A stretch of 32,000 nt of DNA from Candidatus Saccharimonadota bacterium (GCA_004563595.2 CP042461.1:510001-542000); one strand, 5' to 3'. Shown: positions 1-23,188, counted from the stretch's first letter. The notes: a model not told the origin generated them from the sequence alone. Program-made: numbers and translations.

Positions 1-2397
1 ATAAGCTATTGTAACTCAAACATTTTCGAGTCTTGCTTCTAGATTTGCAATTTGGAGCTTAACTATTTTTTTAATATTCCCTTTATCAAGAGGCTTAAAT
101 ACAATAACTTTATCAATTCTATTTACAAACTCAGGAGAGAAGTAGTCAGTGAGATTTTCTTTTATTTTTGTACTTGCTTTTTCATAGTCAGCCATAACGG
201 AATCTTCTTGTTCACCTGATGCATCAAAACCAATTCTATGTGCTTTTTCCATAAATTCTTCTTGTCAGATATTCGAAGTCATTATGATAATGGTATTTTT
301 GAAATTTACCTGTCTTCATTTGTTATCTGTAAGAGTTCAGTCCTCCAAAATTTGGAGAAGAATATTATAGACCTCAAAATCTCATTTTTCAATTTCATCA
401 AAAAGAATAACTGAATATGGTTTTTTTCTTACTTTTTCAGTGAGCATCCCACCTTCTTCATATCATACATATCAAGCATTTGATCCGATGAGTTTATTTA
501 CAGCAGTTTTATCTGAATATTCACTCATGTCTATTTTGATAAGAGCATCTTTGTCATCATAAAATTCTTTTGCAAGGACTTTTACAAGTTCAGTTTTTCA
601 TACTCATGTTGGCCCGAGGAATAGGAAACTTCATAATGGTCTATTTGGATTTCAAATTCCAGCCTTGCTTCTCATAATTGATTTTACGATATTTTCACAT
701 GCTTCATCTTGACCAATAATACTTTTTTTAATATCCTTTGGTAAGTTCTTAAGCTTATCAATTTCGTGTTTATTTAAATTTGAAATAGGTATTCAGGTAG
801 CAATATGGAGTACTTTTTGTACATCATCAAGTGTGACACTGAGTCTTTTTTCTTTTGGAATGGTAAATTTTTTCTTTGCTTCAATAATTTTTGCTTCGAG
901 CTCAGCTTGATCTTCTTTGAGTTTATATGCTTTCTTGTATGATTGAGCGATAACTGCTTGCTCTATATTTTTTTGGAGAGATGCGATTTTTTCACGGAGT
1001 TTTTTTGTTTCTGTTTCATCAAAATTATACTTCATACTTTTTATACTACAAGCCTCATCAATAAGATCAATAGCTTTATCAGGTAAGTATTTATCCGTCA
1101 CATATCTCATTGATAGATCCACTGCTCATTTTACAGCATCAAAATCTATATTAAGGTTATGATAGTTTTCAAAAGATTCTTTGAGCCCATCAATAATTTG
1201 AGTAGCTATTTCTCTCGAAGGTTCATTTACTACAATCTTTTGAAACCTCCTTTCAAGTGCTGAATCTTTTTCTATATATTTTTGATATTCATTATTTGTA
1301 GTTGCTCAGATAACTCTTATTTTTCCTCTTCCCATTGCTGGTTTGAGTATATTTGAAGCATCAAGTGTTCATTCTCAACCTCAAGCTCAAATAATAGTAT
1401 GGATCTCGTCTATAAATAAGATAATTTCATTTTCTACTTTTGAAGCTTCTTCAATGACTTGCTTAATTCTTGATTCAAATTCTCATCTGTATTTTGTCCC
1501 TGCGATCAAAGAAGACATATCAAGTGACAAGACCCTTTTATCTTTCATTGAAAAAGGAACTTTTCATTCTATTATTTTGAGAGCCAATCCCTCTACAATA
1601 GCAGTTTTTCCAACTCAAGGTTCTCATACCAGAGCAGGATTATTTTTTGTTTTCCTATTTAATATTGCTATGAGTCTTTCGATTTCTTTATCTCTTCAAA
1701 GTATAACATCAAATTTTCAATCTCTTGCTTCTTTTGTCAGGTCATTTGAAAAGAAATCAAGTGCAGGAGTAGTAGATTCTTCTTTTTTATTGGTTTGCTC
1801 TTTATTGAGATCAAAAGGTGTGGTATCTCATTCTAAATTTTCCTCTCAAAGAAGGTTCTGAGTTAATGCTCATAATAATTTATCAATAGAATCATCTGCT
1901 AAATTCACATTTGTATTACTTGTTCAATATCATCCATTTTTTAATCCATCAATGGTTCATAATTTATTGAGATCTGTAAGGTTTGTGTCTATATCAGTTG
2001 TAACTATCCCAATATAATCTAAAAAGCTTGTAAACCAAGAGTCATTTTTAATCATAGATAATAAGAAGTCTTCTAAGCTGGCTTTTTCTTTAGAAAAACT
2101 TGCAGCTACTTTGACACTTCATAAAATGACGTTTTTTAATCTTGAACTCATCCCAGAATACACTCATTTTCTTATGCTTGGTGCTTCATTAAAAACTCAT
2201 TTGTTTATAATTTCAATGGCAAGTTTTTCATTTATTCAATAGAGTGCAAAAATTTCTTTTATTCCTCATGTCGAGTTTTTTATAATTTCTAAAAAAACAT
2301 CTTCAAGAGAAAGCTCTTTGAGTCACATTTGTTTTATATTATTTTCAGCATTTATGAGTACCTTTTTATATCCGTCAGAGAAGTTGTTGTATGACAT
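1..2397 (-). CDS. clpC: ClpC/ClpB-class AAA+ chaperone ATPase (N-terminal Clp repeats, two NBDs, short UVR-like linker). The C-terminus runs off the left edge.
   Basis: With TGA=Gly, track ORFs 16..252 and 793..1122 and the sequence between them form one frame from the ATG (rc) at 2395-2397. Walker A 1 reads PALVGEPGVGKTA, with two Gly encoded by TGA (rc of 1624-1626 and 1615-1617). Walker A 2 reads FLGPTGVGKTEL (rc near 601-640), also with TGA Gly. I read lines 241-660 in frame and found no TAA/TAG. The TGA at 16-18 is followed by more sense codons up to position 1. Confidence 0.9.
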
Positions 2398-2617
2398 TAT
2401 CTTTTGTTTTTATGATAAATTAAATTCTTCTTTAGTGTAGAGAGTTTCTTTTTCTTGTAAAGATATTTTTAAAAATTATGTTAAAAAATAGTTGTAAATT
2501 TTTATTATCATCTTATAATATCAATTATACTATATAAAACTGATTTTATTAAGTATTTTTCTATAAAATGGTTTTACTAGCGAGTAATATAATTTATAAT
2601 TTAAAACTTACTTTACT

Positions 2618-3121
2618 ATGTTCAATAAAAAATTCTTTATTCTTGCAACTTGATATGTAATGTGAGGACTTGTTTCGTCGTTTTATAATAAAAAGAAACC
2701 TGAACAATTAAAAACTGAGCTAAAAAAGGCAAGAAAGAATGGAGATGGAGATTTTCAAGTTTTACTAAATAGTTTCTTAGATACTCATAAAAATCTTATA
2801 CAAGATATAGAAAAGGAATTATTAACAGAAAAAAATAAAGAACTTTTTCATTCAAAAAAAGAAGAATTATTAAATATTGCAACAGTATATCAAACTGAGT
2901 GAAATAAGTTAATTGCTGAACTTAAATCTCAATGAAAAGATTTTATTGTTGAAGCATCTGATACATTAGAGAAGTTATATAATGAAAAAAAAGATGAACT
3001 CGATACTTTTAAAGATATTTCTCCAAAAAAAGTTGAAAATTTAAAAGATAATCTCCTCGCTTCTTTTGAGGAATTAAAAGAAGTAATTAAAAATGAGATA
3101 AAAAGTGAAAAAAAGAAATAA
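2618..3121 (+). CDS. Hypothetical small membrane-anchored coiled-coil protein (YtxH-like organisation, 167 aa)
   Basis: ATG at 2618, TAA at 3119-3121, four in-frame TGA read as Gly. It has an N-terminal hydrophobic segment FFILATGYVMGGLVSSF followed by a K/E-rich helical region. No motif-level identification. Confidence 0.5.
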
Positions 3122-3150
3122 ATAATATTTTACTATTAACTATCAAAGAC

Positions 3151-3729
3151 ATGAAAATCGAATTACCAGTACTTCCGTATGAAATGAATGCATTAGAACC
3201 ACATATTTCAGAAGAAACATTACAATATCATTATGGGAAACATCATAATACTTATGTTATGAAGCTGAATGGACTTATTCCAGGTACAGAGTTTGAAGGA
3301 AAAGATCTGGAAACTATTATAAAAACTTCAAATGGTGGAGTTTTTAACAATGCTGCACAAATTTGGAATCATACTTTTTACTGGAACTGTCTTGCTCCAA
3401 ATGCTTGAGGAATACCAGATTGATCTCTACTTGAAGCAATTGAAAACAATTTTGAAAGTTTTGAAAATTTTAAAGAAAAATTTACTGCTTCAGCTGTGAA
3501 TAATTTTTGATCAGGGTGGACTTGGTTAGTTAAAAATTTAGAAGGAAAATTAGAAATAGTAAATACTTCAAATGCAGAAACACCACTCACTGGAAACTAT
3601 AAGGTTCTCCTTACTTGTGATGTATGGGAGCATGCATATTATATTGATTATAGAAATGTGAGACCAGATTATCTCGCTGCGTTTTGGAATCTCGTTAATT
3701 GGGATTTTGTAAATAGTAATTTAAAATAA
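3151..3729 (+). CDS. sodB: Fe-type (Fe/Mn family) superoxide dismutase, 192 aa
   Basis: Track ORF 3151..3408 continues through TGA at 3406-3408, 3421-3423 and 3508-3510. Translation gives HHxKHH-type N-terminus, ...LAPNAGGIPDG..., FGSGWTWL and [30 protein letters not shown]. The YIDYRN region is typical of FeSOD. TAA at 3727-3729. Confidence 0.93.
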
Positions 3730-3746
3730 TACTCTCTTAAACTATA

Positions 3747-3786
3747 AAACATACAAAAGTAAAACTTTTTTTGTATGTTTTTTTGC
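3747..3786 (+). terminator. Rho-independent terminator after sodB
   Basis: Stem aacatacaaaa / ttttgtatgtt followed by a T-run (3748-3786). Confidence 0.6.
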
Positions 3787-3842
3787 TTTTTTGCCTTGAA
3801 ACCTTATTATTCAGGGTATTATCCAATAATGGAATTACAAAA

Positions 3843-4661
3843 ATGGAGGAACATTATTTATGAAATTCTGTGAAGAAAAAATGAGGGAAGTGATTCACTC
3901 TTGTAGAACTTTTAGTTATAGTATCGATTGTAGCAATTCTGGGTACAATCGGTTTTTTATCATATACATGATATACTATTCAAACAAGAAATGTGAAAAG
4001 GTCATCGGATCTTCATTCAATAATAAACAATATAGAAATTTCATTTATTGATAGCGTATCATTATTTTCTATGCTTGATAATACTTGATCAACACTTACC
4101 TCGACAGCTTCATGAGATAATATTCAAATATCGTGAAGAAGATATCCAGACTTGAATGGTTATTACGAAGCTTGAGATATTAATTATAGGATATTGTGAC
4201 TAGAAAAAGATAAATTTTTAGACCCATCAACGAATAAATCTTATAAACTGTGAGTTACTTCATTATGATATAGGTATGAGATAGGAGCGACATTAGAAAA
4301 ATCAGATTGATGAGATTCACTTATTATGTGAAATCGGAAGCCAAGAACTTCTCTATGAGCAAGATGAGAATGAACGGGAATATTATGAAATAGGTATTAT
4401 TTAGTCTCATGAAATTCTGCTGAATCGACATGATTAAAGCAAAGAGATATAGTAAATATAGGTACATGAGCTACAAGTTTAGATTATGTAATAATCGGGT
4501 TAAAATGAAATAAAGTATATTTAGACCAAGAAATTAACCAATGAGGAGATAATATATACTTGCAGTATGATGAAACTCGACATCTAATAAAAAGATGGGA
4601 TTCAAACTGGGCAATAGATATATGAAAAGGAAACATATATACTCCATATGAAATTAATTAG
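3843..4661 (+). CDS. Type IV pilin / pseudopilin-like protein with prepilin N-terminal cleavage/methylation domain (272 aa)
   Basis: The real frame differs from track ORF 3860..4051. From ATG 3843 it reads MEEHYLGNSVKKKGGKG|FTLVELLVIVSIVAILGTIGFLSY. The -1 Gly of the G|FTLxE site is the TGA at 3891-3893. There are many further TGA codons and the stop is TAG at 4659-4661. Confidence 0.75.
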
Positions 4662-5700
4662 TTACTTATTAAATAAAATAATTATGGCAAATAAAAACAA
4701 AGATGAAAACATGTTAGATGAACTTTTTGAAGATTTTACTGAAGTTCAAAAAAAGGAGAAAAATAATCAAGATAAAAATATAGAAAAATTGGATCCTAAG
4801 AAAAAAAAGAAACAAATTTTGATTCTTGTTGTTCTTTTAATTGCTGTATTGGTAGGATATTTTTTCTATTTAGAAAGTTTAGAAAATAGTGAGACTACAG
4901 TTACTCAGGATACAATTATTATTGATACTACAGATAGTGATTATGAAAATAATGTATGAGATTCAAATGATGTCAAAGAGAATCCAGATACAGATTATTC
5001 TATTGAACTCAAGGCGAGATATAAAAAACTCTATTCATTGTTTATTGATAGAACATGGGTAGTCACTGCTCGTTCAGATTTTACAAATGTTTGGTGAGAT
5101 GAGAATATTGAACAATTAGAAAAGTGATGACTAAAAATATCATACCCAAAGGGGAGTTATAAACCATCAGCAGATCCAAGGTGATGAGCAGGATTTATAT
5201 ATCATATATGAGATGATTATAAAAAATTAAAATTTTCTTATGATTTAGAGTTTGCTCCAAACTTTGATTTTGTTAAAGGGGGGAAGTTACCATGATTATG
5301 TTGATGAGATTGTGCAAGGGGTTGAGAAAATGCTAATAATGGTTTTTCTATTCGTTTTGCTTGGAAAAAAGATTGATATCTTGATACCTTAAGTTCAATT
5401 CCATGAGCATCAAAATATGGATCATACTCATGAAAAAAACTTTTTAAGTTTGAAGCATGAAAAAATTATAATATTTCACAAGAAATTATACTTAATACTC
5501 CATGAAAGAATGATGGATCTCTTATTGTAATGGTTGATGGAAGTGAAGTGTATAAGCAAACTGATTTACTTTATAGAAATAACTGAGCTATACAACTTGA
5601 TTCAATTCTATTTTCAACTTTTTTCTGAGGAAGCGATATCTCATGGGCTACTCCAGTTGCTACTTATATTAAATTTAGAAACTTCAAAATGAGTAAATAA
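4648..5700 (+). CDS. Signal-anchored secreted protein with polysaccharide-lyase family 14-like (PF14099-type) domain
   Basis: Track ORF 4648..4959 continues through the TGA at 4957. Motifs: SYPKGSYKPSADPRGGAGF, FVKGGKLPGLCGGDCARGG, NGFSIRFAWKKDGYLD, ILNTPGKNDGSLIVMVDGSEVY, FSTFFGGSDISWATP. TM segment ILILVVLLIAVLVGYFFYL. TAA at 5698-5700. The start could instead be ATG 4684. Confidence 0.65.
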
Positions 5701-5724
5701 TTTGTAAATATAATTTTTTCAGTC

Positions 5725-6576
5725 ATGAATAAACGTCAGCAAGCCATAAAAAAAATGATTATAAAAAACAAGGAGATTTTTTTTATTATTACTCTCTTTA
5801 TTTTTGCGATAATTATAATGACATTTAGTTTTCATGGGGGAAAAAAAGATGATTGAAAACTCGTTCAAGAAATTTCAGTTAATACTTTAAATAACTCACA
5901 AGCTCTTATGTTTGATAATTTTTTAAGTACACGTTGAAAGGTCTCTTGATATACTAATAATTGGTGACGTGAAAATATAATAAATTTTTCAAATGGCGAA
6001 TTAAAGATATTCTACCCAAAAGGGAGCTATACTCCATCAAAAAAGCCAGTCTGATGACTTGGATTTATTAAAAAGCTGAGTAATAGCTATGAACATGCAA
6101 AACTTACTTATAAAGTGAAATTTGATACTGATTTTGACTTTGTAAAGTGAGGGAAACTCCCCTGATTTTGTGGATGAGACTGTTCAAGGGGATGATTGGA
6201 TACAGATAATGGTTTTTCAACAAGATTTATGTGGAGAACAAATGGATATTTGGAAGTGTATGCATATTTAGCAACAAAAAAATGAACATATTGAAAAAGC
6301 CTATGAAGAGGAATGATAACGATGGTACCAGATAAATATTATGAAATCTCACAAGAAATAGTTCTTAATACTCCTGGAAAAGCAAACGGAGTACTTATTG
6401 TAAGTGTTGATGGAGAAGAAGTTTATAGAAATACTGAGCTTATATTTAGGAAAAATAGCTCTTTATGAATAGATTCATTATTATTTTCAACGTTTTTCTG
6501 ATGATGAGACCCGAGTTGGTCGAGTGAGAAAGATAATTATAGTTTTATGAAGGATTTTGAAATTTTTTATGAATAA
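5725..6576 (+). CDS. Second PL14-like signal-anchored protein, tandem paralog of 4648..5700
   Basis: ATG 5725, TAA 6574-6576. It has the same motif series: FYPKGSYTPSKKPVGGLGF, FVKGGKLPGFCGGDCSRGG, NGFSTRFMWRTNGYLEVYAY, LNTPGKANGVLIVSVDGEEVY, FSTFFGGGDPSW. TM segment IFFIITLFIFAIIIMTF. Confidence 0.65.
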
Positions 6577-6738
6577 ATGAAAAAAGCTGGGAATATTCTC
6601 AGCTTTAATTCCAATTACTTTATTTTCAACTTGATTACATATACTCCTATACTTAGGATGAGAGATATAAAACTTGCATTTTGTTGTTTTTATTGTAATA
6701 TATTGAGATGTTAATAGTTTATTTTTTTAGTAAATATT

Positions 6739-7038
6739 ATGGGTATTAAAGGAGGGGAAGGTTTAAAAATGGAAAGTATGGATATCTGAGAATATGATTT
6801 CAATAAAACGAATTGATGAAAACCTGTTGTTTTAGAGGAATCGTTATATGGTAAACCATTGGATATAACTAAATTCTTTAAGAATGAGACCATTGAAGTT
6901 TTAGATTTTCCTCCACATTATCCAGAGATTGATACAGCTTCTATTGATCCTGAAATCCTTGCATCAACTTTTCCTAAAGAAGGTGAAGGATGTTTAGATT
7001 TGAATGAGTTCATGAGAAAGATTGAGAAAAAATATTAG
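6739..7038 (+). CDS. Hypothetical protein (99 aa if ATG 6739; alternative starts at 6769 and 6778)
   Basis: Open frame with three TGA=Gly codons (6787, 6814, 6817) and TAG at 7036-7038. Native-style codon usage. No recognisable motif. Confidence 0.4.
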
Positions 7039-7068
7039 TTAAACTTACATTTTGATATTTATATATAT

Positions 7069-7097
7069 TTGACAAAAATATTTAAATATATATAAAT
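7069..7097 (+). promoter_or_regulatory. Sigma70-type promoter of the GT2 operon
   Basis: TTGACA at 7069-7074, a 16-17 nt spacer, then TATAAA/ATAAAT at 7091-7097. A GGAGAG Shine-Dalgarno site at 7132-7137 lies 6-8 nt before ATG 7144. Confidence 0.55.
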
Positions 7098-7143
7098 AGT
7101 CTACGAACTATTTTTAAATTTTTTTTGAAATGGAGAGTACGAC

Positions 7144-8688
7144 ATGGCTGATTTTATGCCACACAAACCAGAACAAACAGAATCTTCTAAGGATAGCCGA
7201 ATTTTAGTATCGGCTTTTACTGGTTTGATTTTTTTTGGTCTGATATCACATATAGCAGTTAATATTGATGATCTTTTGCTTCTTACAAAAGGATCAATGA
7301 CATCAGTGATTGCTTATGTGGCAGGGGTTGGAATTATTTCTGCTTGGAGATATTCTAACTATTTGTATAACGCGTATCGAGCTGTTACATATAAGTTTTG
7401 GTACAAAACTTGGGAAGAAGAAGTAGAGTCTCATGACTTACCTCTTCCATATGACTTACTTGAAGTTCATGTGATGGCATATGAGGAAACTCCTCTTGTT
7501 TTTGCTACTTGTTTTCGATCATTGGCAATTGATGTTGCATCAACTGAAATACCAGCAGTTATTTATGTGAGTATTTCTAAAGATAAAGCAAGAGCTTCGG
7601 TTGATTTACAGGTCATTAAGAAAACCATTAATGGTTTGGAAAAAGAGAATATTATTGTTGTTGATAATGCTACAAGGAAGTTAATCACTATTAATCAGAA
7701 AGGGCAAGGAAAGAAAAATGCACTTGCAAGTTCGATTGATATGGGATTAACTAACCCTAGTATGCAAAGTATACGACGAGCTGTTCTACTTATGGACTGT
7801 GATCAATTTATTGTGAAAGGAACGATTAAGAGATCTTTAAAATTTTTAGGATCGAGCGATAGAGTAAATGCTGTTACTCCTAGTAATAGAGCATGGTGCC
7901 TTACTGATAGTGATGCATATGTTGAACTATCATCTGTACGGCTTGGTCCTCGAAGAGATCATTCAATGTCAGTAGCAGCTACGGTAGCTACTGGTAGATT
8001 TGTGATATTTGAAGGGGAGTTTATTACTAAAACTCTTGTTAAAAAACTAAATCATGATATTTATACTTATGATGAGTTTGGGAGTTTTATAGCAGCTACA
8101 GGTGAGGATAAACGTACGTATTTGGACCTTCTTGAAAAAGGGGGTGATATAGCATTTTTATTATCTGTAGTAGTTTTTTCTATTGAGGAACCAGAGAATG
8201 AAGAAAAACCTATAAGGTCATTTGTTTCACAAATGTTTCGTTATAAGGGAAATTCCCATCGTTTTCATTCAAAAGTTCTTAAGCTTCCACCAGAGTTGCT
8301 TGACTTTCAGAAAAGACGAATATTTTGGGATCAAAAATGGGCATTCTGGACTCCTATAACAGGAATTTTAAGCGCTTTAGTCGGTTTAGTAATGTGGGGA
8401 AAAGTTGTAGTTGAAATATACTTTGTTGGAGCGTACTTAATAAGGGAAATCCAGGCAAGGTATTACTGTTGGTTTACTGGGGTGAAATATTCTCCATGGA
8501 TGCCGATAACTATTTATTTTGATCAAACTTTTGGAGCTTTTATTGATTTATTGGCTAGGTTTACACCAAATGTTTCAAAATGGATACAGAAAGGAGTACC
8601 TCAGGGGGGAGAAATTCAAGCGGTATCAATACTTAATATTACTATTACATTTATGGCAGTATTTCTGCTTATATTAACGATTACTTAG
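7144..8688 (+). CDS. Membrane-embedded processive family-2 glycosyltransferase (hyaluronan synthase / NodC / chitin synthase / Alg8 class), 514 aa
   Basis: Uninterrupted even in the standard code. Two N-terminal TM helices and several C-terminal ones flank a cytosolic domain carrying QKGQGKKNAL, LLMDCDQF (DxD), ATGEDKRTY (GEDR-type) and QMFRYKGNSHR (a QxxRW-type motif with Y in place of W). I counted about 28 Gly, all GGN and none TGA. TAG stop. Confidence 0.8.
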   Translation: MADFMPHKPEQTESSKDSRILVSAFTGLIFFGLISHIAVNIDDLLLLTKGSMTSVIAYVAGVGIISAWRYSNYLYNAYRAVTYKFWYKTWEEEVESHDLPLPYDLLEVHVMAYEETPLVFATCFRSLAIDVASTEIPAVIYVSISKDKARASVDLQVIKKTINGLEKENIIVVDNATRKLITINQKGQGKKNALASSIDMGLTNPSMQSIRRAVLLMDCDQFIVKGTIKRSLKFLGSSDRVNAVTPSNRAWCLTDSDAYVELSSVRLGPRRDHSMSVAATVATGRFVIFEGEFITKTLVKKLNHDIYTYDEFGSFIAATGEDKRTYLDLLEKGGDIAFLLSVVVFSIEEPENEEKPIRSFVSQMFRYKGNSHRFHSKVLKLPPELLDFQKRRIFWDQKWAFWTPITGILSALVGLVMWGKVVVEIYFVGAYLIREIQARYYCWFTGVKYSPWMPITIYFDQTFGAFIDLLARFTPNVSKWIQKGVPQGGEIQAVSILNITITFMAVFLLILTIT

Positions 8689-8696
8689 GGGGAAAT

Positions 8697-10124
8697 ATGA
8701 ATTCACCAATTTCTGAAGCAGAAGTATTGCATCATTCACACCCAGCACTTAAATTTCGAGTAGGAGATATATTATATGATATTAATGGCTGGAATTCTGT
8801 AACAATAGAATTGAAGACAAAGTTGCCAGATGACATTACTGATGCTGTTTTAGAGATATGGGATAAAAAACGAAAGGGGCTTATTCCATTACTGGTTGAT
8901 GATCTTCATGAGTCTGAGGGTAGACACTTTCTCTATCCTATACAAGAAGTAGGGGATGAATCCAATGGTCGACTCGTTGTTTTAGAAGGTGAGGTCGCTA
9001 TAGGTGATTCTGATAGCTGGGTTCAGGATTTGTCAGCTAGAGTTCCATTGGAGACAATAGATCATGATCATATAGCAGATATAAAGATGAAGCGTAGGAT
9101 GCCTCTGAAATTTAAGTTTCTTGGCTGGACGTTATTCACAGCTTTAGCTTTTGCGATTAGCTATGAAGTCATGTTCAAAGATATTGCATTAACAGCATAT
9201 TCAAGCCCTCAGTCTGTTGATCGCTTCCGACAATCAGGATTGGAAGTAAAAACTTCTTCTGTTGGTCAGGATGTTGAAGAAAACAGTGTGTACCTGAGCT
9301 TAAATGACTTTGATTTAATTGATAGGAAAACTGCACTAGAGAGTGAAGAAAAGCTATGGAGATCTAAAATAGCTTTGGCAATAGCAAGGTTTAATACCTT
9401 GAATATAAGAGTTAATCTTGATCGAGAGTTACTTACACCATTACTTGAGGAAAAAATAAAAAGAAGAACTGCTATGGGGAATGGTCATGAACATGCATTT
9501 TCTGCATATGAAATGGCTGATATAAACATTGAAGTACTTAATCTTCAGGCAAGATCAAATGCTTTAGAAAAAGGAGTTATTAACAATGGGGATACTACTC
9601 AATCTATTAATGTCTTTCAAGAAGAGTTAGATGTTCAGAGAGCTGAATTGAAAAAAGTAGTTAATGGTTTAAAATCATTAGAATTACAGGAAGCAAATTT
9701 AGAAAAACTAGCTCCATCTGATTCCAACTTTATAGAATTTATTGAAGGAGGAGAGAATGCCGAATTTAGTAAAGCTATTTTTATACCACTTGATAATACA
9801 GAAAATGTTATCATAGTAGCAGCCATAAGTCGGGATATATTTAATAGACTTTCTGGTAATGAAGTGTATTATAGTAGGGTAGGTGGAGGAATGTGGAGGT
9901 CAGCTCCATATGAAGTATTAAGTGACCTTGACTTAAAAAACTTCTACTTATCTAAAGACTTCTTAAATGGAGATACTGTTAAAATAAAAATAAAAACAGA
10001 AATAGGTGGGGAACTACGCAAGGAGCTCATTGGGGAACCAGTGAATGTTCATGTACCTGTAGTGCCTCTTAATTTCATGCCTCGATGGCTTCATCCTAGG
10101 GTTTTTCTATCCTATGTGATTTAG
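8697..10124 (+). CDS. Co-polymerase/export partner: ~140-aa cytoplasmic domain, one TM helix, then a periplasmic coiled-coil plus beta-rich region resembling membrane-fusion (HlyD-like) proteins. The architecture is Alg44/BgsB-like.
   Basis: GGGGG SD at 8688-8692, ATG 8697 (8 nt after the upstream TAG). TM segment FLGWTLFTALAFAISYEVMF. Heptad-like stretches (LNLQARSNALEKG..., ELDVQRAELKKVVNGLKSLELQEANLEKL) are followed by VIIVAAISRDIFNRLSGNEVYY and GDTVKIKIKTEIGG, which resemble an MFP barrel. No TGA codon. TAG stop. Confidence 0.55.
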   Translation: MNSPISEAEVLHHSHPALKFRVGDILYDINGWNSVTIELKTKLPDDITDAVLEIWDKKRKGLIPLLVDDLHESEGRHFLYPIQEVGDESNGRLVVLEGEVAIGDSDSWVQDLSARVPLETIDHDHIADIKMKRRMPLKFKFLGWTLFTALAFAISYEVMFKDIALTAYSSPQSVDRFRQSGLEVKTSSVGQDVEENSVYLSLNDFDLIDRKTALESEEKLWRSKIALAIARFNTLNIRVNLDRELLTPLLEEKIKRRTAMGNGHEHAFSAYEMADINIEVLNLQARSNALEKGVINNGDTTQSINVFQEELDVQRAELKKVVNGLKSLELQEANLEKLAPSDSNFIEFIEGGENAEFSKAIFIPLDNTENVIIVAAISRDIFNRLSGNEVYYSRVGGGMWRSAPYEVLSDLDLKNFYLSKDFLNGDTVKIKIKTEIGGELRKELIGEPVNVHVPVVPLNFMPRWLHPRVFLSYVI

Positions 10125-10140
10125 TACATCTACAAAAATA

Positions 10141-10170
10141 AAAACCTACATTTAATGTAGGTTTTTATTT
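10141..10170 (+). terminator. Rho-independent terminator of the GT2 operon
   Basis: aaaacctacat ... atgtaggtttt stem followed by tattttg (10141-10170). Confidence 0.7.
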
Positions 10171-10230
10171 TGCATTTTAATATAAATACTATATAATATA
10201 GTATATATATTAATTCATAACTATAAAATT

Positions 10231-10584
10231 ATGTCTAATACAGCATCAATATGAGGAGAAGCTTCATGAGTAGATAAATTTGCGTGATTGAGATCGTTAG
10301 GTGTAAATCCAGATATCCAATCAATAGATTTAGAAGTTTCTGATAGTGTCAGCAAAATAATTTTCACCCCAGGTAAGTCACCACTTACGCCTGAGGATGA
10401 TGGAACAGATCACTCTGGAGCATTATATTCTCATCAAGAACATCCTGAATTTGGACTCTCTGGTATTGGTGATTATTCTAACATGAGTAGTTTGAAGGAT
10501 AAACCTGTAACTTTTGAAGAGATTCTTGCTGAACATCAGGAATGGCATTCTTGAAAAAACTCACCACTAAGTATGAATGACTAG
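10231..10584 (+). CDS. Hypothetical protein, 117 aa
   Basis: ATG 10231 is in frame with track ORF 10288..10554. It has five TGA=Gly codons and TAG at 10582-10584. Native codon style resumes immediately after the TGA-free operon. Confidence 0.5.
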
Positions 10585-10600
10585 TCTCTTACTTAATATA

Positions 10601-10643
10601 AAAAAAAGATCTTACTTTATTTAAAGTAAGATCTTTTTTTTAT
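10601..10643. terminator. Bidirectional rho-independent terminator between convergent genes
   Basis: aaaaaaaagatcttacttta ttt aaagtaagatcttttttttt: a perfect stem with an A-run on one side and a T-run on the other. Confidence 0.7.
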
Positions 10644-12025
10644 ATTTTTGCATTATTTATTTGCTGCAGCATTCTAAGGTGACTCTCATTTACATGTTTC
10701 GTTTCTAATGTCATATATTCATCACTTTTTTTTGTATTAGTATCTTCATGAATTATTCACATTTTTCTTAATAACACTGTTAAGCTAGGATCAATTTGTT
10801 GGTCTTTAAACATCTCATGCATAAGTAATCTACTTGTTCATGCTGCAAGGAGTTCTTCTGTACTTACCTCCGTTTTCACAGTAGAAATTTGTGCATAGGT
10901 ATCAATAGCAGATTCTTTAATTGTAGCATTAAAATCTGTAAATATTGTTGGACGAACACTTTTTTTAGAGAGGCTTTGAAGTATATTAAGAGATGTCTCT
11001 ATTTCTGAATGATCTTCGTATAATCATTGTTGTTGCATCATTAACCCTCAGTTAATGAATAGTTTTTTATTATTAATTGGTTGTACCATTAATTGTTGAA
11101 ACAAGTCTATTGTAAGTTCTTCAATCATTTTTGTGAGTTGGCCTAGCTCAAATTTTTTATGTGAATCATCTATTAATAAAAAATGTTGTCATCCTTGAAT
11201 TCTATATCCTTTTAGGTTTGGTAAACCATAACCATTTATAATTGATGGTATAATATCACCTAAAATTACTTTTTCCCCTTCTTTTCAAGATATATTTTGT
11301 ATATTATTAAAGTTTTCAATATCAAAAACAATAACTCAAAAATTAGTTCATTTTTTTAATAATATTTCAGTATCATGAATAAATAGGTGTTTTGTGTATA
11401 AGCCATACTCATCTAGAGTAAGTGCTATATCGATTTTTCTTTTTTGTATTAATTGTTCAATTCTAACTACAATACTATTTGATATTTTAGTCAAAAGAGC
11501 TTGTATATCATTGTTAAACTTTTTTCATTCTATACAAAAAGTTCTTTTTAAAGCTAACTTTAATGATGCTATATCTCGAAAAGAATTTTGTGAAACAATA
11601 AAAGAAGAATTTTTAAGCTTATTTATTCATTGAGAGATATATATGTTTCAATTATTTTCTGAAGCAATGTACTTTTGAATTTGCTTTAAAAGTAATGTCA
11701 TATCTGTATCAATTTCTCATTTTTCACTTATTTGGAACTCTATAATAGGAGAATGAGCGAGCTTATATCAATCTGGGGTACCATCAAGAGCTTCAATTGC
11801 TTTGATTGATTTTGGTAGATTTGATAACAATGTACTTAAAATTGATCCTATGTTATCGGCTCAATTTATATCATTTACAAGTTTTTCTCCTTCTTTTTCA
11901 ATTTCTGATTGAATAAGGTCATTGAATGTGATTGGTTTTAAATGATTTTTAATTGGTTGTTCTTGTTTGTTCTCATCTAAAGAAACTATGTGAGAAACTC
12001 AACTTCAAGGTATTTTGTTTGACAT
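10640..12025 (-). CDS. Hypothetical protein with a degenerate GGDEF-like domain (GGQHF in place of GGDEF), 461 aa
   Basis: ATG (rc) at 12023-12025, TAA (rc) at 10640-10642, length 1386 nt, so the frame is consistent. The central region reads VIVFDIENFNNIQNISGKEGEKVILGDI...LKGYRIQGGQHFLLIDD. This parallels the diguanylate cyclase pattern DIDxFKxxNDxxGHxxGDxVL...RxGGDEFxxLL but lacks the catalytic DE. Confidence 0.45.
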
Positions 12026-12201
12026 TTATTTTATATTAATTTTAAATTCTATTTTATAATACCCATGATTCTAAAAAATCAAGTTTTATTTATGACTTTT
12101 TGTAAATAAATATTGTATATTTTTCAAGTAGATTTTTTTTTGCCTTTTTCTTATTTTTAAACATAATGATTTTAGCTCTAATACTTAATTATATACTATA
12201 A

Positions 12202-13149
12202 ATGGAATCAAAAAATATTCAAGAAAAAATACAACAAGTGAAAACAGAAATAGCAAAAAAAGTAGTGTGACAAGAAAACCTTGTAAGAGACTTGCTAATA
12301 TGACTATTTTCTCAATGACATGTACTTCTTGAATGAGCTCCATGATTAGCAAAAACACTTGCAGTTGCAACGCTTTCAAAAGTAGTTGATTTAAATTTTA
12401 AGAGAATTCAATTTACTCCAGATTTACTTCCAAGTGACCTTATCTGAGCAAAAATATATAACCAAGAAAAACAAGACTTCCAAATAAAAAAGTGACCGAT
12501 TTTTACGAATATAGTTCTTGCAGATGAAATTAATAGATCACCATCAAAGGTCCAATCAGCACTCCTCGAAGCAATGGCAGAAAAACAAGTAACCATAGGA
12601 GATAAATCATATAAACTGAGTGAGCCATTTATGGTTCTTGCTACTCAAAACCCACTCGAACAATCAGGGACATACTCTCTTCCAGAAGCACAACTTGATA
12701 GATTTTTACTTAAAACCATTGTAAACTACCCTAATGAAACCCAAGAAATAGAGATCATGAAACAGTATGCTTCTGATAGTGAAGTAAATCTAGATAAAGT
12801 ACTTTCAAAAAAAGAGCTTTTAGAAATACAAAAACAAGCTGAATCCATATTTGTAAACGATCATATATATGAATATGTAAAAGATCTTGTTTTTTACACG
12901 AGAAATCAAGATTTCATGAAAAAGTACCTTGCTATCTGAGCCTCACCAAGAGCATCAATTGCACTTATAAAAACAGCAAAAATTTTAGCTCTCCTGGACG
13001 GAAGAGACTTTGTCCTCCCAGAAGATATAAAAGAAATGATCTACCCTGTTATGAGGCATAGAATCATCCTCTCATACGAATCAATAGCTGAAGGAGTCAC
13101 AACAGATGATGTAATCACTGAAATCCTTTCTAAAGTAAGTGTTCAATAA
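12202..13149 (+). CDS. moxR: MoxR-family AAA+ ATPase, 315 aa
   Basis: ATG 12202, TAA 13147-13149. Walker A is LLEGAPGLAKT with TGA Gly at 12334-12336 and 12343-12345. Walker B is VLADEINR. Also [27 protein letters not shown] and ASPRASIAL. It joins track ORF 12574..12939. Confidence 0.9.
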
Positions 13150-13264
13150 TTATCTCTTCCCTGAATCCCTACTCTTTAGTCAAAGAGCAGGGGGCTACAA
13201 ATCAGTTAACTGCAGCCTCTTTCTCTTTGACTAAAGAGAGAGAATTCAAGTGAGAGATAATTAT
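13146..13264 (+). repeat. Long imperfect inverted repeat (~119 nt extended hairpin) in the moxR-DUF58 spacer
   Basis: The left arm 13150-13187 (ttatctcttccctgaatccctactctttagtcaaagag) pairs with the right arm 13223-13260 (ctctttgactaaagagagagaattcaagtgagagataa). By hand pairing, 31 Watson-Crick and 2 G-U pairs out of 38. The outer 12 nt (ataattatctct / agagataattat) are perfectly complementary. It starts on the moxR stop codon. Confidence 0.7.
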
Positions 13265-13284
13265 TATAATTTCAATATACAACA

Positions 13285-14124
13285 ATGCATAAAAAACATA
13301 AAAACCTTCTCGACCTAAAAATAAATAGACTCGTTGATAATCTCTCTGTTTGAAACCATAAAACAGCATTCAAGGCAAAATGAATGGAATTCGCTGACTA
13401 CAGAGAATATGAATACGGTGAAGAAAGTAAGAACATTGATTGGCTAGCATCTTCAAGAGAATGAAAAATGATAGTGAAGTTATTTGAAGAAGAAAGGGAG
13501 ATGGATGTATATGTATTAGCACTATTTGATTGAGATATCGATTTTGAATTCAATGGAGTAAAAAAAAGAGATGTAGTTGAAGAGATTTTTTACCTACTTG
13601 GACTCTCAACTATACAGTTTCAAAATAAACTATGAGCAATTTTTCATGATAGTGAGAAAAAAAGAATATTTGAAGCAAAGAAATCAAAGGCTCACTTTTT
13701 AAATATATTTTCAGAGTTTGAGAAGAGTAATTTTTCAGGGAATGATATAAATAGCTATTTAGAATATTTTAACTGACTAAATATAAAGAACTCTCTTGTT
13801 TTTTTACTCACATCAGATACAAATATTGATGAAAAAATATTAAAAATATCATGTGTAAAGAATGATTTTGTCGTTTGTAATACTTTTCATTCATTTGAGA
13901 ATAATCTTACAGGTACATGAATAATATGATTGAAAAACTCTTGAATGAAAGTCTCTATAGACTTAGATGATACAGAGAAAAAAAATCAATATAAAAAACT
14001 CAGATATGATAAATTAAGCAGCTTTAAAGATAAAGTTTTTTCTTCCAAATGAAGATATTTATACTTTGATGAGAATACCTGTGTATTCAGTGAATTTTTT
14101 AAATTTTTTCATACACATTATTAA
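13285..14124 (+). CDS. DUF58 family protein (MoxR-associated, VWA-like)
   Basis: ATG 13285, TAA 14122-14124. Signature GMEFADYREYEYGEESKNIDWLASSREGKMIVKLFEEE. Its position directly after moxR is typical. Confidence 0.8.
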
Positions 14125-14146
14125 AAAATAATTATAAGTTATCCAT

Positions 14147-14602
14147 ATGCAAGAACTATATTGACTTAGAGAAACACAATTAGATTATATAATTATCCCA
14201 ATAATAGCATTATTATTAGGAGTTATTATATATTCATTATTCCTGAAATATTTACAGGATAATAAGTGAAGTAAAAAGGCTGAAGAAATGATTGTAGAGG
14301 AGCATTTTGATCCGGTAGATATAATATATAAAAAGCTTCAAGTATTAAAAAAAGAATCTCATGTTATCTCAAAAGATATCTTTTATAAAGAAGTGAACGA
14401 TATATTTCGAGAATATTTTGTTTTATTATGAGTCTCAGGAGCATTTCAATCTACTTTAAAAGAACTTGAAAAATCTTGATTACCAAATGAGTTATTAGTT
14501 TTATTTAAAAGATGTTATTATCAGGAGTTTTCACTATCCCTAAATTCAATGAATGATAGAGAAGATATTATAGAAGATTTTATAAAAATATTACAAAAAT
14601 AA
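14147..14602 (+). CDS. Small membrane protein of the Bat operon (DUF4381-like position)
   Basis: ATG 14147, TAA 14600-14602. One TM helix IIIPIIALLLGVIIYSLFL. It sits between DUF58 and batA, as in Bacteroides-type aerotolerance operons. Confidence 0.55.
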
Positions 14603-14603
14603 T

Positions 14604-15614
14604 ATGTTTACATTTTTATATCCATGAGTTTTCCTATTTATTGTACCAGTAATTATATTGGTTGTTTTTTTGTATTTCCAATGATTAAGAAGAGTAGATT
14701 TTTGACCATTAAAAGATCTGCAAAAATTTTATAAAAAAGATACTCTCTATTTTAAGATATATAATTTTTTATTACTGCTGATATTTTTTGTTTTTATAAC
14801 AATTTTATCCGGACCAGTAGTAAGTGAAACAAAGGAAAACATAAAGAAAAATGGTATTGATATACAAATAGTCTTGGATGTATCACTTTCTATGATCGCT
14901 GAGGACCTAAAACCAAATAGATTAGAAGTAGCAAAGTGAGTGATATATGATTTTTTAAACACTCTCAAAACAGATAGAGTTGGGCTTGTTATTTTCGCAT
15001 GAAAACCATTTATCTCACTCCCACTCAATTTTGATTATAATATTTCAAAAAAAATAGTAGATAAAATTTCAGTATCTACTATTAATCAAAACTCCCCTCA
15101 CTTACAATGAACGGCTGTATGAGATGCTTTGTTATTAGCTACTGATTCATTTGATGACAAATCAAAGCAGAGATGAAAAGTCATTGTTTTGATAACCGAT
15201 TGAGAGGCTAACAAGTGATTGAATCCATTAATCTGAGTTGAATATGTAAATAAGTTGTATAAGAATAGCTTAAACAAAGAAAAAATAAAAGTGTATACTA
15301 TCTGAATATGATGATCAGAAAAAACGTTTATTCTCTATAAACACCCCTTTGCTTGAACTCAAAAGGTAGAAATTTCTTGAGTGGATGAAGAGACTTTAAA
15401 AACTATTGCTTCAAAAACATGATGAGAATATTTTAGGGCAACAGATAAAAAGAGCTTAGAGAAGATATTTGAAAATATTTCAAAACTTGAGAAAAAAGAA
15501 ATAGAAGTAGAATCTATTGAAGTTCATAAAAGTAAAAATATATATTTTGTTTCTTTGTTGATGATATTATTTTTACTCCTCTTTCTACTTAAATTAAGAA
15601 AGAATATAATTTAA
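14604..15614 (+). CDS. batA: VWA-domain membrane protein BatA
   Basis: ATG 14604 (1 nt after the upstream stop), TAA 15612-15614. MIDAS elements LDVSLSM, GTAVGDAL, ITDGEANKG and IGIG, with N- and C-terminal TM helices. Confidence 0.85.
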
Positions 15615-16577
15615 ATGAAAAATATGATATTTTCAAATGTAAATAATCTGAGTATTACTTTATTTTTACTTTTCGTAGGAGTATCTTTTATTTTTACATT
15701 TTTACTTTTTAAGAGGCAAAAATCTCTTGTTGTTTCTGTCTGTCTTTGATTATCAATGATATTTCTATCGATAAATATATTTGAGATCAAAGGATGACCA
15801 GCTCAGAATGTTCAAGAACTTGGTTGATCAAACATACTTTTTGTACTTGATGTGAGTAAAAGTATGGATGCACTTGATTTTAAAAATGATAGAAGCGTTA
15901 TATCTCGATTATCCACTGCTAAAATATTTATAAATTCATATTTAGATTATAGTACCAATAATAGCTATTGATTATTTGTATTTGCATGAGAAACACTTGA
16001 AATATTGCCATTTACAAGAGATCTGTGATTATATAAAACTATATTGCAATGAGTCGATAAAAATAATGTCTCAAAAAATTGAAGCGAATTTATATGAATT
16101 TTTAGAAGCTTATCTCGATTTTTTAAGGAAAGTAATGATAATTCACTTGTTGTGATATTTACTGATTGAGGAGAAGAAAGTCAAGCTGACTTAGATGATT
16201 ATGTAGTAAAATTAAATGAGAAGAATATTCTGGTCTTGGTTGTATGAATATGATCACTTAAATGAAATTATATCCCTATTTGAAGAAATTCTTTTGGGCA
16301 AATACAATATAAGATATATAATTGAAAAAAAGTAATAAGTGCATTGAATGAATCTTTTTTAAAAAGACTTTCTTCGAAGTATGACTTTGAATATATTCAT
16401 TTAGAGAACCTTAAAGACCTTGAAGCTATTAGTAATATAATTACAAGTATGTCTTGAGATGTTGTTTCGAATCAAAATATAAATTCTAGAACTGACCTGA
16501 CTTACGTTTTTGCTATTATATCATTTCTTTTTTTTATTTTATTTTTATTTTTTGAATATAAATTATGAAAAAAATAA
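15615..16577 (+). CDS. batB: VWA-domain membrane protein BatB
   Basis: ATG 15615 directly abuts the batA stop. LDVSKSM, FTDGGEES and VVGIGS motifs, plus a C-terminal TM helix. The frame passes TGA at 16566-16568 and ends at TAA 16575-16577. Confidence 0.8.
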
Positions 16578-17239
16578 GCTTAGTAACATGCGCCTGTATA
16601 GTTTTATTTTTTATTGTTAATTATAATGCTATTATATCAGAGTATTATAACTATAAAGGAAATATCTTGTATCAGGAATGATCGTTTACATGAGCTTTAG
16701 CATATCATAATTGATCACTTCAGAATAAAAAGTCTCCTGAGATTTTACATAACTTATGAAATGATAGTTTTAAAATTTGAGAGGAGAATACTGATCTGCA
16801 AAGAAAATTTGAGTTGTATAATAATGCATTAAATTTTTACTCATGATCGTTGAGTATTGCAGAAAATTTCGAAACTCGAGAAAATTATAATTATGTACTT
16901 GAAAAGATAATAGAAGAATTTACGAAACAAGAGAATAAAGGTCAGGATAAAAATAGGGAAGAACAAGATGAAAATAATAATGACCAAAATCAAAACTCAA
17001 GTAACACTTGATCTAATTCTGAGGAGAATTCAGGAGCACAGATCGAATTATCAGAATCTAACATGGAAGAAATTAAAGACTATATAGAAAAACTAAAAAG
17101 ACAGCAAGCTAAAAACTGACAGTACTTTAATAAGGAGGAACAATCAGATATTGATTCTAATAATTTCTTTTTCTGAAATTTTGTAAATGACCCATTTTTT
17201 CAAGATGTATTTAATAGATGATGAGAAAAAGATTGGTAA
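16565..17239 (+). CDS. batC: TPR-containing BatC-like protein
   Basis: ATG 16565 overlaps the batB end. Signal-anchor CACIVLFFIV, TPR-like GNILYQEGSFTGALAYHNGSL...LGNDSF, an acidic/low-complexity middle, and a C-terminal ...GGEKDW. TAA at 17237-17239. Confidence 0.7.
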
Positions 17240-17767: not shown

Positions 17768-18538
17768 ATGGGAACTACTGGTCAATCAAAAGATGATGAT
17801 TTAATCATTTTATCAGATGATATAACTACAGATGAAGAAACATTTTGAGAAAATATTTTAGATGATTCTGTTTTATTAGATGATACAAAGGAGAATGACT
17901 CTGATATTCTTACATTTGATGCTGATTTAAGTAAAGCTGAGGATTGAGTTATGGATAATATGAGTGAAGATACTATCATTGATTTAGATGATAATAACTC
18001 TCTTGATCCTATAGAAGATGATTCAGATACAAAGTGAGATGATTCAAAAATAGATTTTGATTTTTGAGACTTATGATCTGATAATGTTGAAAAAGAAGAG
18101 GAATCTACTACAGAACAAGAGAATTCATTAGATATCTCTGATTCTGACGAGATATTAGACTTATGAGAATGATTGAATATTCCTGAGGATACTATTCAAG
18201 AAGATACTGAATGAAATAATGAAGAATCAGGTTTTTCTTTAGATTCAACTACATTCTCAGGTGATAATTCTTCAGATAACTGAACTATGTCATCCATCTT
18301 AGATGATACTATTTCGAAACTTAGTTCAAGAAAAGGAGCATTAGAGGATAAAAAAAATATAGAAGAAACTCATATATCTGAATTAAAAGATCAAGTAAAA
18401 GATTTAGAAATTCAAGTTTCTGATTCTGAAGAAAAAGTTGAAAATTTCAAAACTGAATCAAAACATATTGAATCTAATATTTCTCAATTAGAGAAAATGA
18501 AAGAAGTACCGAGTGATTGAGGGAAGAAAATGAAATAA
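17768..18538 (+). CDS. Highly acidic hypothetical protein with a C-terminal coiled coil, 256 aa
   Basis: ATG 17768 is in frame with track ORF 18287..18520 and continues past the TGA at 18518 to TAA 18536-18538. The N-terminal two thirds are D/E/S-rich. The C-terminus reads ELKDQVKDLEIQVSDSEEKVENFKTE. Confidence 0.6.
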
Positions 18539-21006: not shown

Positions 21007-21008
21007 AC

Positions 21009-21959: not shown

Positions 21960-21986
21960 GTAGCATCATTCTTAATAGAGGAACAT

Positions 21987-22020
21987 AAAAAAAGAGACAT
22001 CATACGATGTCTCTTTTTTC
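21987..22020. terminator. Bidirectional terminator between 21009..21959 and dapD
   Basis: aaaaaaagagacatc atac gatgtctctttttt. Confidence 0.8.
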
Positions 22021-22038
22021 CTGCCTCCAACAGGGTTA

Positions 22039-23091: not shown

Positions 23092-23188
23092 TTTTTTGCC
23101 CTCCCAGGCTTTGTTTTGATATTTGCATTCTAATCTATTTAAACTAGAAAAGTGTATTATTTATAGTAAATAACATCAATAAGTCAAA

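Follow-up and report, generated by a model that had tools for sequence, protein, structure and literature searches.

How does an operon free of TGA codons come to lie in a genome that reads TGA as glycine, and does the absence of this codon mark a recent arrival? The question is raised by a stretch of 32,000 nucleotides (nt) from Candidatus Saccharimonadota bacterium (GCA_004563595.2, CP042461.1:510001-542000), analysed here at its full length, referred to as the window and numbered from its first letter. Two adjacent plus-strand genes within it, gene 1 at 7144-8688 and gene 2 at 8697-10124, had been described from the sequence alone as a self-contained exopolysaccharide synthase module, acquired laterally from a standard-code donor and not yet adapted to its recoded host (hereafter the original prediction). 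We hold it reasonably probable that the pair is a polyuronate synthase operon of foreign ancestry whose TGA-free state is maintained, rather than being the mark of a merely very recent arrival.

A TGA-free gene pair in a code 25 genome

The window is written in code 25, the code of Gracilibacteria/Absconditabacteria type in which TGA specifies glycine, as indicated by the TGA codons at the invariant Walker A glycines of ClpB and MoxR and by the interchange of TGA and GGN at conserved glycine columns among orthologs from related contigs. With TGA read as sense, 66 open reading frames (ORFs) of at least 100 codons are found, versus 16 in the standard code. The organism has a G+C content of about 29%, native genes almost always stop at TAA, and 313 of their 521 glycine codons (60%) are TGA. 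Turnover between the two spellings is fast in this lineage, TGA and GGN having been switched at 29-47% of the conserved glycine sites in native ortholog pairs of 75-80% protein identity.

Apart from gene 1, with 514 amino acids (aa), and gene 2, with 475 aa, no plus-strand ORF longer than 172 aa stays intact when read in the standard code. The 28 and 26 glycine codons of the two genes are GGN in all 54 cases and TGA in none (P ~3e-22 against the native share), so that the original prediction was right about the intactness of the two frames and the spelling of their glycines, while its count of roughly 60 was too high. Both genes stop at TAG. The codon and tetranucleotide measures that it had proposed as checks also set the pair apart: at amino acids other than glycine, no genes in the window deviate further in synonymous codon usage (z = -3.5 and -3.9 for genes 1 and 2), a deviation driven by CGA in place of AGA for arginine and CAG in place of CAA for glutamine, and tetranucleotide distance, computed in 3-kb segments, peaks at 7001-10500. 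The locally raised G+C was likewise borne out, although not with the figures given (30-45% versus about 22%); the pair has 35-36% and native genes 19-33%, mostly 24-31%. This excess sits in codon positions 1 and 2, G+C at third positions (GC3) being almost host-like (0.22-0.24 in the pair versus 0.13-0.22 in native genes).

Translation signals follow the same division. Sites resembling a Shine-Dalgarno (SD) sequence were found in the window only before gene 1, gene 2 and the gene for DapD (tetrahydrodipicolinate N-succinyltransferase), some 27 native genes being without one, in agreement with the earlier description of GGAG and GGGGG sites. The GGAG at 7132-7135 (plus strand) lies 8 nt before the ATG of gene 1, with a duplex energy of -6.8 kcal/mol compared with about 0 in native genes; the GGGGG at 8688-8692 (plus strand; -9.3 kcal/mol) runs into the gene 1 stop codon, which the start of gene 2 follows at a distance of 9 nt; this overlap suggests translational coupling. 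The two-gene operon ends in a hairpin followed by a T-run at 10135-10171 (plus strand), with 18-nt arms that are 100% complementary, so that the announced terminator is real and of intrinsic type in appearance. The promoter described as textbook, TTGACA-N16-TATAAA at 7069-7096 (plus strand), is present as a string; nevertheless, it constitutes no evidence, since promoter-like matches are no commoner in the AT-rich window than expected by chance (68 observed, 62.8 +/- 8 in shuffled sequence).

Gene 1, a predicted Alg8-family synthase

Sequence matches to the Alg8 family, the retention of invariant columns and a full-length match to the hyaluronan synthase (HAS) fold together indicate that gene 1 is a membrane-embedded processive synthase of glycosyltransferase family 2 (GT2) and a distant member of the Alg8 family. 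When 1.84 billion cluster representatives were searched exhaustively with phmmer, 141 relatives were returned, the best with an E-value of 5e-28 and 27% identity over residues 55-491. The top matches are full length (E 5e-28 to 1e-22; 22-27% identity) and carry the source names 'glycosyltransferase Alg8' or 'mannuronan synthase'. The same family came up when GTDB species genomes were scanned, with Pseudomonas alg8 loci matching at about 1e-25, and the protein scores 30.4 bits on Pfam Glyco_tranf_2_3 (cut-off 27 bits). The word-indexed homolog search had the protein itself as its sole match, phmmer against PDB sequences gave none, and NCBIfam holds no model recognising gene 1, gene 2 or the partner family described below.

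In an alignment of 45 family sequences all 16 invariant columns are kept in gene 1, among them G189-K190, D218xD220, R270, T283-G284-R285, G320xD322-K323 and R366xxG369-N370. The motifs named in the original prediction (DxD, GEDR-type and QxxR with W replaced by Y) are found at these positions as DxD, GEDK and QxxRY. The nucleotide-sugar/metal motif is D218-C-D220, with both aspartates in invariant columns; in the catalytic-base motif G320-E-D322-K323 the G, D and K are invariant in 45/45 sequences and E replaces D in 3/45; and in the QxxRW-type motif Q363-M-F-R366-Y367 the arginine is invariant and Y replaces W in 7/45, RY for RW being, on this alignment, a known variant of the family. Residues specific to gene 1 occupy several near-invariant columns (C219, D272, V287, E290, R324, Y326, Q363, D468 and S478), and gene 1 is an outlier inside the Alg8 family.

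An AlphaFold2 (AF2) model built with the family alignment reached a predicted local distance difference test score (pLDDT) of 84.7 and a predicted TM score (pTM) of 0.87. Its top Foldseek matches are full-length hyaluronan synthases of Chlorella virus (CvHAS) and Xenopus (XlHAS1), with TM scores of 0.57-0.65; the alignment with CvHAS (E 1.8e-13, TM score 0.61-0.65) extends over about 490-510 columns, and BcsA, chitin synthases and plant CesA come next. Homology search, motifs and structure prediction thus agree on the HAS/NodC/Alg8-type processive class proposed earlier, and profile searches place gene 1 within processive GT2 synthases rather than outside them.

Many Alg8-like relatives are longer (870-910 aa), with a C-terminal parallel beta-helix fusion (Pect-lyase_RHGA_epim / beta_helix_1), as in P0003, P0004, P0011 and P0014 and in loci L024, L038, L046, L053, L066, L073, L078 and L082. 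In these fusions the putative lyase or epimerase seems to be part of the synthase itself.

Gene 2, a probable Alg44-like partner

Searches of Pfam and NCBIfam gave no match for gene 2, and the homolog index returned the protein alone. In about 60 of the 83 homolog loci an Alg44-like partner gene adjoins the Alg8-like gene. By BLAST the partners fall into a single cluster, to which Pseudomonas Alg44 also belongs, and the family diverges very fast (22-29% identity between distant members). Against a profile of 61 partners gene 2 scores 8.4 bits, compared with a maximum of 4.6 among 2000 region-preserving shuffles, and HHalign gives a probability of 71-72% and an E-value of about 3e-5; this is a weak profile similarity, yet a colinear one, running through the N-terminal domain, the transmembrane helix, a 'G-x-V-x-x-G' lipoyl-like turn, the coiled coil and the C-terminal beta domain. 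The layout of gene 2 itself, a hydrophobic helix at about residues 139-158 followed by predicted helix, coil and beta segments, would fit the co-polymerase arrangement of Alg44 type that had been suggested for it.

A PilZ domain was considered for gene 2 and dropped, having neither Pfam support at E 10 nor profile support. At the positions of the PilZ motifs RxxxR and DxSxxG the protein has LHHSH and NGWNSV, which are not conserved, and by the PilZ domain gene 2 does not qualify as an Alg44. Gene 2 is therefore best described as probably an Alg44-like co-polymerase that would not bind cyclic di-GMP (c-di-GMP).

PL14 lyases, a proteobacterial cassette and the likely polymer

Upstream of the pair lie two genes for lyases of polysaccharide lyase family 14 (PL14), both on the plus strand and both encoding proteins with an N-terminal transmembrane anchor: lyase a at 4648-5700 (Pfam PF21294, 6.6e-48; anchor at residues 52-79) and lyase b at 5725-6576 (2.7e-55; anchor at residues 11-40). 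They are 51% identical to each other and written in the native style, with TGA at 18 of 29 and 17 of 31 glycine codons, respectively. The PL14 family includes both alginate and glucuronan lyases.

This neighbourhood recurs outside the recoded lineage. Of the 83 homolog loci, 23 have a PL14 gene no more than 6 kb from the Alg8-like gene, among them 12 of the 15 best tblastn matches of gene 1, from Halomonas/Billgrantia-type genomes, Lichenihabitans and Roseomonas. The order in this proteobacterial cassette is nucleotide-sugar dehydrogenase, Alg8-like synthase, a partner of about 520 aa and PL14 lyase. Lyase a is 40% identical to the PL14 beside the Alg8-like gene in locus L004, and the window lyases overall are 34-47% identical to those of the cassette, which share 42-54% among themselves; for the synthase, the corresponding values are 24-27% for gene 1 and 34-45% among cassette members. 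The cassette dehydrogenase scores 482-495 bits on the model of the UDP-glucose dehydrogenase TuaD, on which Pseudomonas AlgD scores 255 bits. The window holds three of the four cassette components.

The polymer is most likely a polyuronate, either glucuronan-like or mannuronan-like, judging by the correspondence with this cassette; the TuaD-like dehydrogenase in the closest cassettes would point as much to glucuronan as to mannuronan. The module can no longer be called self-contained, given that the pair sits with two PL14 lyases and that the cassette dehydrogenase is not in the window. The cassette, apparently uncharacterised, may itself make up a synthase system of glucuronan type that differs from the canonical alg operon; a literature search found no description of an Alg8/Alg44-PL14 cassette. 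As side observations, it recurs in L006, L009-L011, L014, L017-L020, L022, L026, L027, L029, L031, L047 and L052 (Halomonas/Billgrantia and others) and also in L004, L005, L012, L016, L032, L036 and L054, its synthase is often 640-700 aa long, and its partner of about 520 aa is of PilZ/MFP type.

The missing dehydrogenase invites the view that the operon is an inert passenger, acquired but without function in a cell that cannot supply an activated uronic acid, in which case the absence of TGA would be meaningless. The probable source genome of the window, the Gracilibacterium of Sieber et al. 2019 (PMC6851277), has indeed been reported to have no central sugar metabolism and to depend on UDP-N-acetylglucosamine (UDP-GlcNAc) from outside. 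Unconstrained genes, however, would quickly gather TGA codons and frameshifts, whereas both ORFs are intact over their full 514 and 475 aa, gene 1 retains every family-invariant residue at about 25% identity, the SD sites, the coupled start and the terminator are all retained, and two lyases for the presumed product are kept alongside. We regard an inert passenger as improbable.

Genomic setting and foreign ancestry of the pair

The pair and the lyases belong to a lineage-specific variable block (4648-12025) that consists of the two lyases, a first small ORF, genes 1 and 2, a second small ORF and a gene for a 461-aa protein. The first small ORF, an orphan of 99 aa (6739-7038, plus strand; G+C 0.31), has three TGA codons, all within its first 27 codons, and the second, an orphan of 117 aa (10231-10584, plus strand; G+C 0.367), has four, three near the start and one near the end; TGA is thus present in both, as the original prediction had reported with counts of 3 and 5, only the latter of which needs correction, and it is clustered at the ORF ends. 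The sharp boundary that the original prediction had drawn from these counts is doubtful, for both small ORFs also show raised G+C and a TAG stop. The island boundary may lie outside both of them, since their G+C is closer to that of the operon than to that of native genes.

Two observations concern the small ORFs themselves. Residues 56-78 of the first (6904-6972) resemble residues 3-25 of gene 1 (7150-7218) with 12 of 23 positions identical (E 0.002 in a tiny database), which may mean that the 5' end of the synthase gene was once duplicated or replaced and left this remnant, or may be chance. In the standard code the second would contain a TTG-start ORF from about 10279 ending at the TGA at 10552-10554. 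Beyond it, a perfect 25-nt inverted repeat at 10595-10646 forms a bidirectional terminator between convergent genes, and the 461-aa protein (10640-12025, minus strand), the last gene of the block, is native-coded with 16 TGA codons and has no Pfam match at E 10. A degenerate GGDEF domain was entertained for this protein and dropped, with no Pfam support at E 10 and no profile support; a metagenome scan with it as query gave no match.

A search with MoxR as query recovered the loci of 12 recoded, AT-rich relatives. In L086, the closest syntenic relative (ClpB 80%, superoxide dismutase (SOD) 76% and MoxR 69% identical), the order is ClpB, a homolog of 2618-3121, one extra gene, SOD, a pilin-like gene and MoxR; the pilin-like gene directly adjoins MoxR and the whole block 4648-12025 is absent. 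Homologs of gene 1, gene 2, PL14 or the 461-aa protein number 0 in the 12 loci, so that syntenic code 25 orthologs carrying TGA glycines, which would have spoken for vertical descent, did not appear. Vertical inheritance with TGA avoided by chance is effectively refuted by this result, by the block's absence from the syntenic site, by the P-value for 0 of 54 and by the equally atypical non-glycine codons and SD sites.

L093, L085 and L088 hold other genes at the site of the block, which marks it as a variable spot. Upstream of MoxR, L088 has methyltransferase-like, Bro-N-like and PLD-nuclease-like genes (6275-8881), L093 has PBP1-like and LytR-like genes (4382-9869), and L085 has repeat proteins (1-9990), including a 278-aa TGA-free ORF without an SD site. 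No convincing integrase or transposase, tRNA target, flanking direct repeats or integration scar was found around 6400-10800. A phage-borne origin was rejected, as close relatives of the two proteins are absent from IMG/VR, in which a single, distant Alg8-like match was found. Likewise rejected was an Alg8-like match labelled 'Candidatus Gracilibacteria' (L043, JALUWO010000225.1) as a code 25 ortholog; across 7.7 kb its DNA is 86% identical to that of L055, a contig from Campylobacterales, and it stays fully open when read in the standard code, uses TGA stops and is probably misbinned.

The difference in composition and coding style from the flanks would also be expected if a standard-code fragment had been joined into a recoded contig during assembly or through contamination. 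Such a chimeric join at the pair is unlikely, because the window is matched at 100% identity over 3357-13179 by an independent Logan assembly of SRR3580189, which spans both junctions, with recoded genes on each side. In addition, the gene 1 protein is on record on several large contigs of up to 1,343,103 bp, the junctions are without repeat, and DapD repeats the same pattern in independent samples; we give a chimera hardly any credence.

Foreign, standard-code ancestry of the operon is well supported by the complete lack of TGA, the non-glycine codons, the SD sites, the TAG stops, the tetranucleotide composition and the absence of the block from L086. In this respect the original prediction has stood up well.

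DapD as a control for the absence of TGA

The pair had been taken for the only genes of its kind in the window; the minus strand contradicts this. The dapD gene (22039-23091, minus strand) has the same pattern, with GGN at all 42 glycine codons, no TGA and an SD-like GGAGG at 23100-23104, and its G+C (0.377) and codon usage (z = -2.9) are also atypical. The named relatives of the protein come from marine Gammaproteobacteria (60-64% identity). It clusters with four orthologs (L165 1820-2860; L167 932-1972; L172 351-1388; L174 90-1130), which are 63-68% identical to it and 76-89% identical among themselves, and which share at most 55-61% identity with the other DapD compared, including those of the named Gammaproteobacteria. 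Recoded DNA can be demonstrated under three of the five clade members (the window, L165 and L167); in L165 and L167 the neighbours of the gene are TGA-rich and without SD sites, the genomic contexts differ, and in L167 a transposase fragment lies upstream. Viral DapD matches in IMG/VR are no closer than cellular ones.

The five orthologs contain no TGA among 42, 44, 42, 39 and 40 glycine codons, carry an SD sequence 7-9 nt before the ATG and stop at TAA or TAG. At the 32 glycine columns conserved in three of them, 23 vary among GGN codons and none has TGA. A DapD of foreign ancestry has thus stayed TGA-free and SD-led past the divergence at which neutral turnover would saturate, and this control indicates that the absence of TGA is not a clock and may be maintained. 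Across 129 genes in recoded loci, six are TGA-free with at least 8 GGN codons, and five of these six rank among the six genes with the strongest SD sites, although they represent only about two independent families. A fidelity hypothesis, by which TGA would be avoided at essential glycines, was rejected, as the Walker A glycines of native ClpB and MoxR are encoded by TGA.

DapD lies in a second lineage-specific block (18691-23962), together with a 771-aa beta-CASP/metallo-beta-lactamase RNase-like protein, a 316-aa protein and a 242-aa protein. This block is absent from L086 and L093, in which a homolog of 17768-18538 abuts a homolog of 23941-24549. Both TGA-free gene sets therefore sit in lineage-specific blocks that also contain TGA-rich genes.

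Recent arrival or maintenance

The simplest account of the pair is a very recent lateral transfer from a standard-code donor, with TGA avoidance being neutral and temporary. It agrees with the lack of TGA at 54 glycines despite the fast neutral turnover of TGA and GGN in this lineage, with the retained SD sites, TAG stops and CGA/CAG codons, with the absence of the block from the closest relative and with the highest tetranucleotide deviation in the window. Several results make this account, and with it the earlier wording 'not yet adapted', doubtful. Host-like GC3 implies that the donor itself would need about 30% G+C; no relative above 27% identity exists among the 1.84 billion cluster representatives, and none is close in viral contigs; the PL14 genes that share the block have been fully recoded, with about 60% TGA; DapD with the same signature is old, conserved across five orthologs that are persistently TGA-free; and signs of mobility (an integrase, a tRNA target, flanking direct repeats) did not turn up. 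We therefore rate very recent transfer as rather unlikely, and our comparison tilts slightly towards a TGA-free, SD-led state of the pair that is maintained rather than the result of neutral recency.

A number of points weigh against reading the pair as a maintained polyuronate synthase operon. Neither gene of the pair has a known ortholog, so that the argument for maintenance proceeds by analogy from DapD, and the absent block together with the atypical arginine and glutamine codons is also what a recent transfer would leave if its standard-code donor were AT-rich and unsampled. For gene 2, support for homology to Alg44 is moderate: the protein gives no Pfam match to PilZ even at E 10, its residues 1-140 show no significant similarity to the N-terminal domain of the family by HHalign or hidden Markov model, and its single-sequence AF2 model (pLDDT 35.7) is unusable, which weakens the case. 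The window contains no nucleotide-sugar dehydrogenase or other precursor gene, a point that bears on substrate supply and hence on activity, and the identity of the polymer rests on the gene neighbourhoods of homologs that are 24-27% identical.

Proposed function and wider implications

In the proposed mechanism, gene 1 would provide the catalytic subunit of a synthase-dependent acidic polysaccharide system, and gene 2 a single-pass co-polymerase with its coiled-coil/beta domain outside the membrane and without the c-di-GMP-binding PilZ motifs. Polymerisation would take place on the cytoplasmic side of the membrane; the chain would be passed out through the channel of the synthase, and the membrane-anchored lyases would trim it, with regulation presumably independent of c-di-GMP. 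The activated sugar may come from elsewhere, possibly from the host of the cell, given that the dehydrogenase is absent from the window and that the probable source genome is reported to be without central sugar metabolism. The lack of TGA, the SD sites and the TAG stops would be retained features of standard-code style. A role of the polymer in attachment or as a capsule is speculation.

To our knowledge, this would be the first indication of an alginate-synthase-type acidic exopolysaccharide system with matching lyases in a Gracilibacteria cell or in the candidate phyla radiation (CPR), moreover one presumably without c-di-GMP control and in a cell probably without an outer membrane. It bears on how episymbionts attach to their hosts or shield themselves from them. 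Sieber et al. (PMC6851277) make no mention of alginate or of this locus, and SD-led or TGA-free genes of Gracilibacteria did not turn up in a search of the literature.

That genes can stay TGA-free and SD-led in code 25 genomes is a more interesting lead than the synthase system itself. DapD orthologs, diverged by 11-37% in protein sequence, have kept both properties, whereas TGA and GGN are freely exchanged in native genes, and 'no TGA' in a recoded genome is consequently no simple sign of recent transfer. We tentatively suggest, as a possibility that is on balance somewhat doubtful, that code 25 Gracilibacteria keep a few xenologs, such as the synthase operon and DapD, that are selected to be TGA-free and SD-led and hence translatable in both codes. 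Dual-code compatibility has been proposed for TGA-free phages of these bacteria (PMC10746230); for the genes considered here it would explain the lack of in-frame TGA, the non-TGA stops and the retained SD sites, and the dual-code-compatible set could be a gene pool moving between the recoded symbiont and standard-code bacteria. It counts against this idea that no standard-code carriers of these genes were found. Alternatively, the genes could form a codon-gated regulon that is translatable when UGA decoding by tRNA-Gly(UCA) is limiting. Were the suggestion of genes readable in both codes to prove general, code 25 genomes would harbour a class of such genes, which would also affect the view of codon reassignment as a barrier to gene flow. 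The absence of TGA makes genes 1 and 2 directly expressible in Escherichia coli, and their function is therefore easy to test.

Other features of the window

A conserved operon at 12202-17239 encodes MoxR, a DUF58 protein, a small membrane protein, two VWA (BatA/BatB-like) proteins and a TPR-like protein, and is syntenic in every longer recoded relative. At 30095-31165 and 31187-31999 (both minus strand) lie tandem paralogous genes for secreted proteins with SH3_3 and CAP/SCP domains and a common C-terminal '...YYVTTHYCTEF'. The sole match of an Rfam scan of the window was a tRNA-Ser(GGA) gene at 28130-28217 (minus strand), which is overlapped by a spurious 61-codon ORF (28069-28254); no riboswitch was found upstream of gene 1 or DapD.

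Comparison with known systems

The mannuronan synthase Alg8 of Pseudomonas and Azotobacter is of the same family as gene 1, with about 500 aa, the same invariant motifs and a partner gene next to it. Gene 1, in contrast, is only 22-27% identical, has its own residues at several near-invariant columns and may use UDP-glucuronic acid rather than GDP-mannuronic acid, in a cell that, unlike those of the Alg8 system, is probably without an outer membrane. Of the alg operon, algD, algK, algE, algG, algX and algL are not in the window, whose lyases are PL14 rather than AlgL. Gene 2 resembles Alg44 in its place beside the synthase and in its predicted succession of a cytoplasmic N-terminal domain, a single transmembrane helix, a coiled coil and a C-terminal beta domain, but it is without detectable PilZ and has 475 aa versus 387-389 aa in Pseudomonas.

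A further parallel is offered by the proteobacterial cassette, which provides the best matches of gene 1, a partner of similar length and a PL14 gene in the cluster (34-47% identical). Nevertheless, the window is without the dehydrogenase, its gene order differs and its lyase is duplicated; gene 1 is far more divergent (24-27% versus 34-45%), gene 2 is without PilZ motifs, and the lyases are TGA-coded whereas synthase and partner are TGA-free. The class I hyaluronan synthase CvHAS (PDB 7sp6-7spa) is the best structural match of gene 1 (TM score 0.61-0.65) and, like it, a membrane-integrated processive GT2 enzyme that both makes and translocates an acidic polymer, a property predicted in the case of gene 1. 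Identity is 14-15%, however, and HAS acts alone and makes a heteropolymer, whereas gene 1 is a member of the Alg8 family with a partner.

As a piece of DNA, the locus resembles a recently acquired genomic island in its atypical composition and codons and its absence from close relatives, but differs from one in having no mobility hallmarks, no identifiable donor (best homolog 27%) and no viral relatives. The code-11-compatible phages predicted to infect Gracilibacteria/Absconditabacteria (Liu et al. 2023, PMC10746230) are phage genomes, while the genes discussed here are chromosomal metabolic and envelope genes with no phage genes nearby and no IMG/VR relatives. Yet the two share the property with which this analysis began: no in-frame TGA, stops at TAA or TAG, and genes that read identically in both codes.

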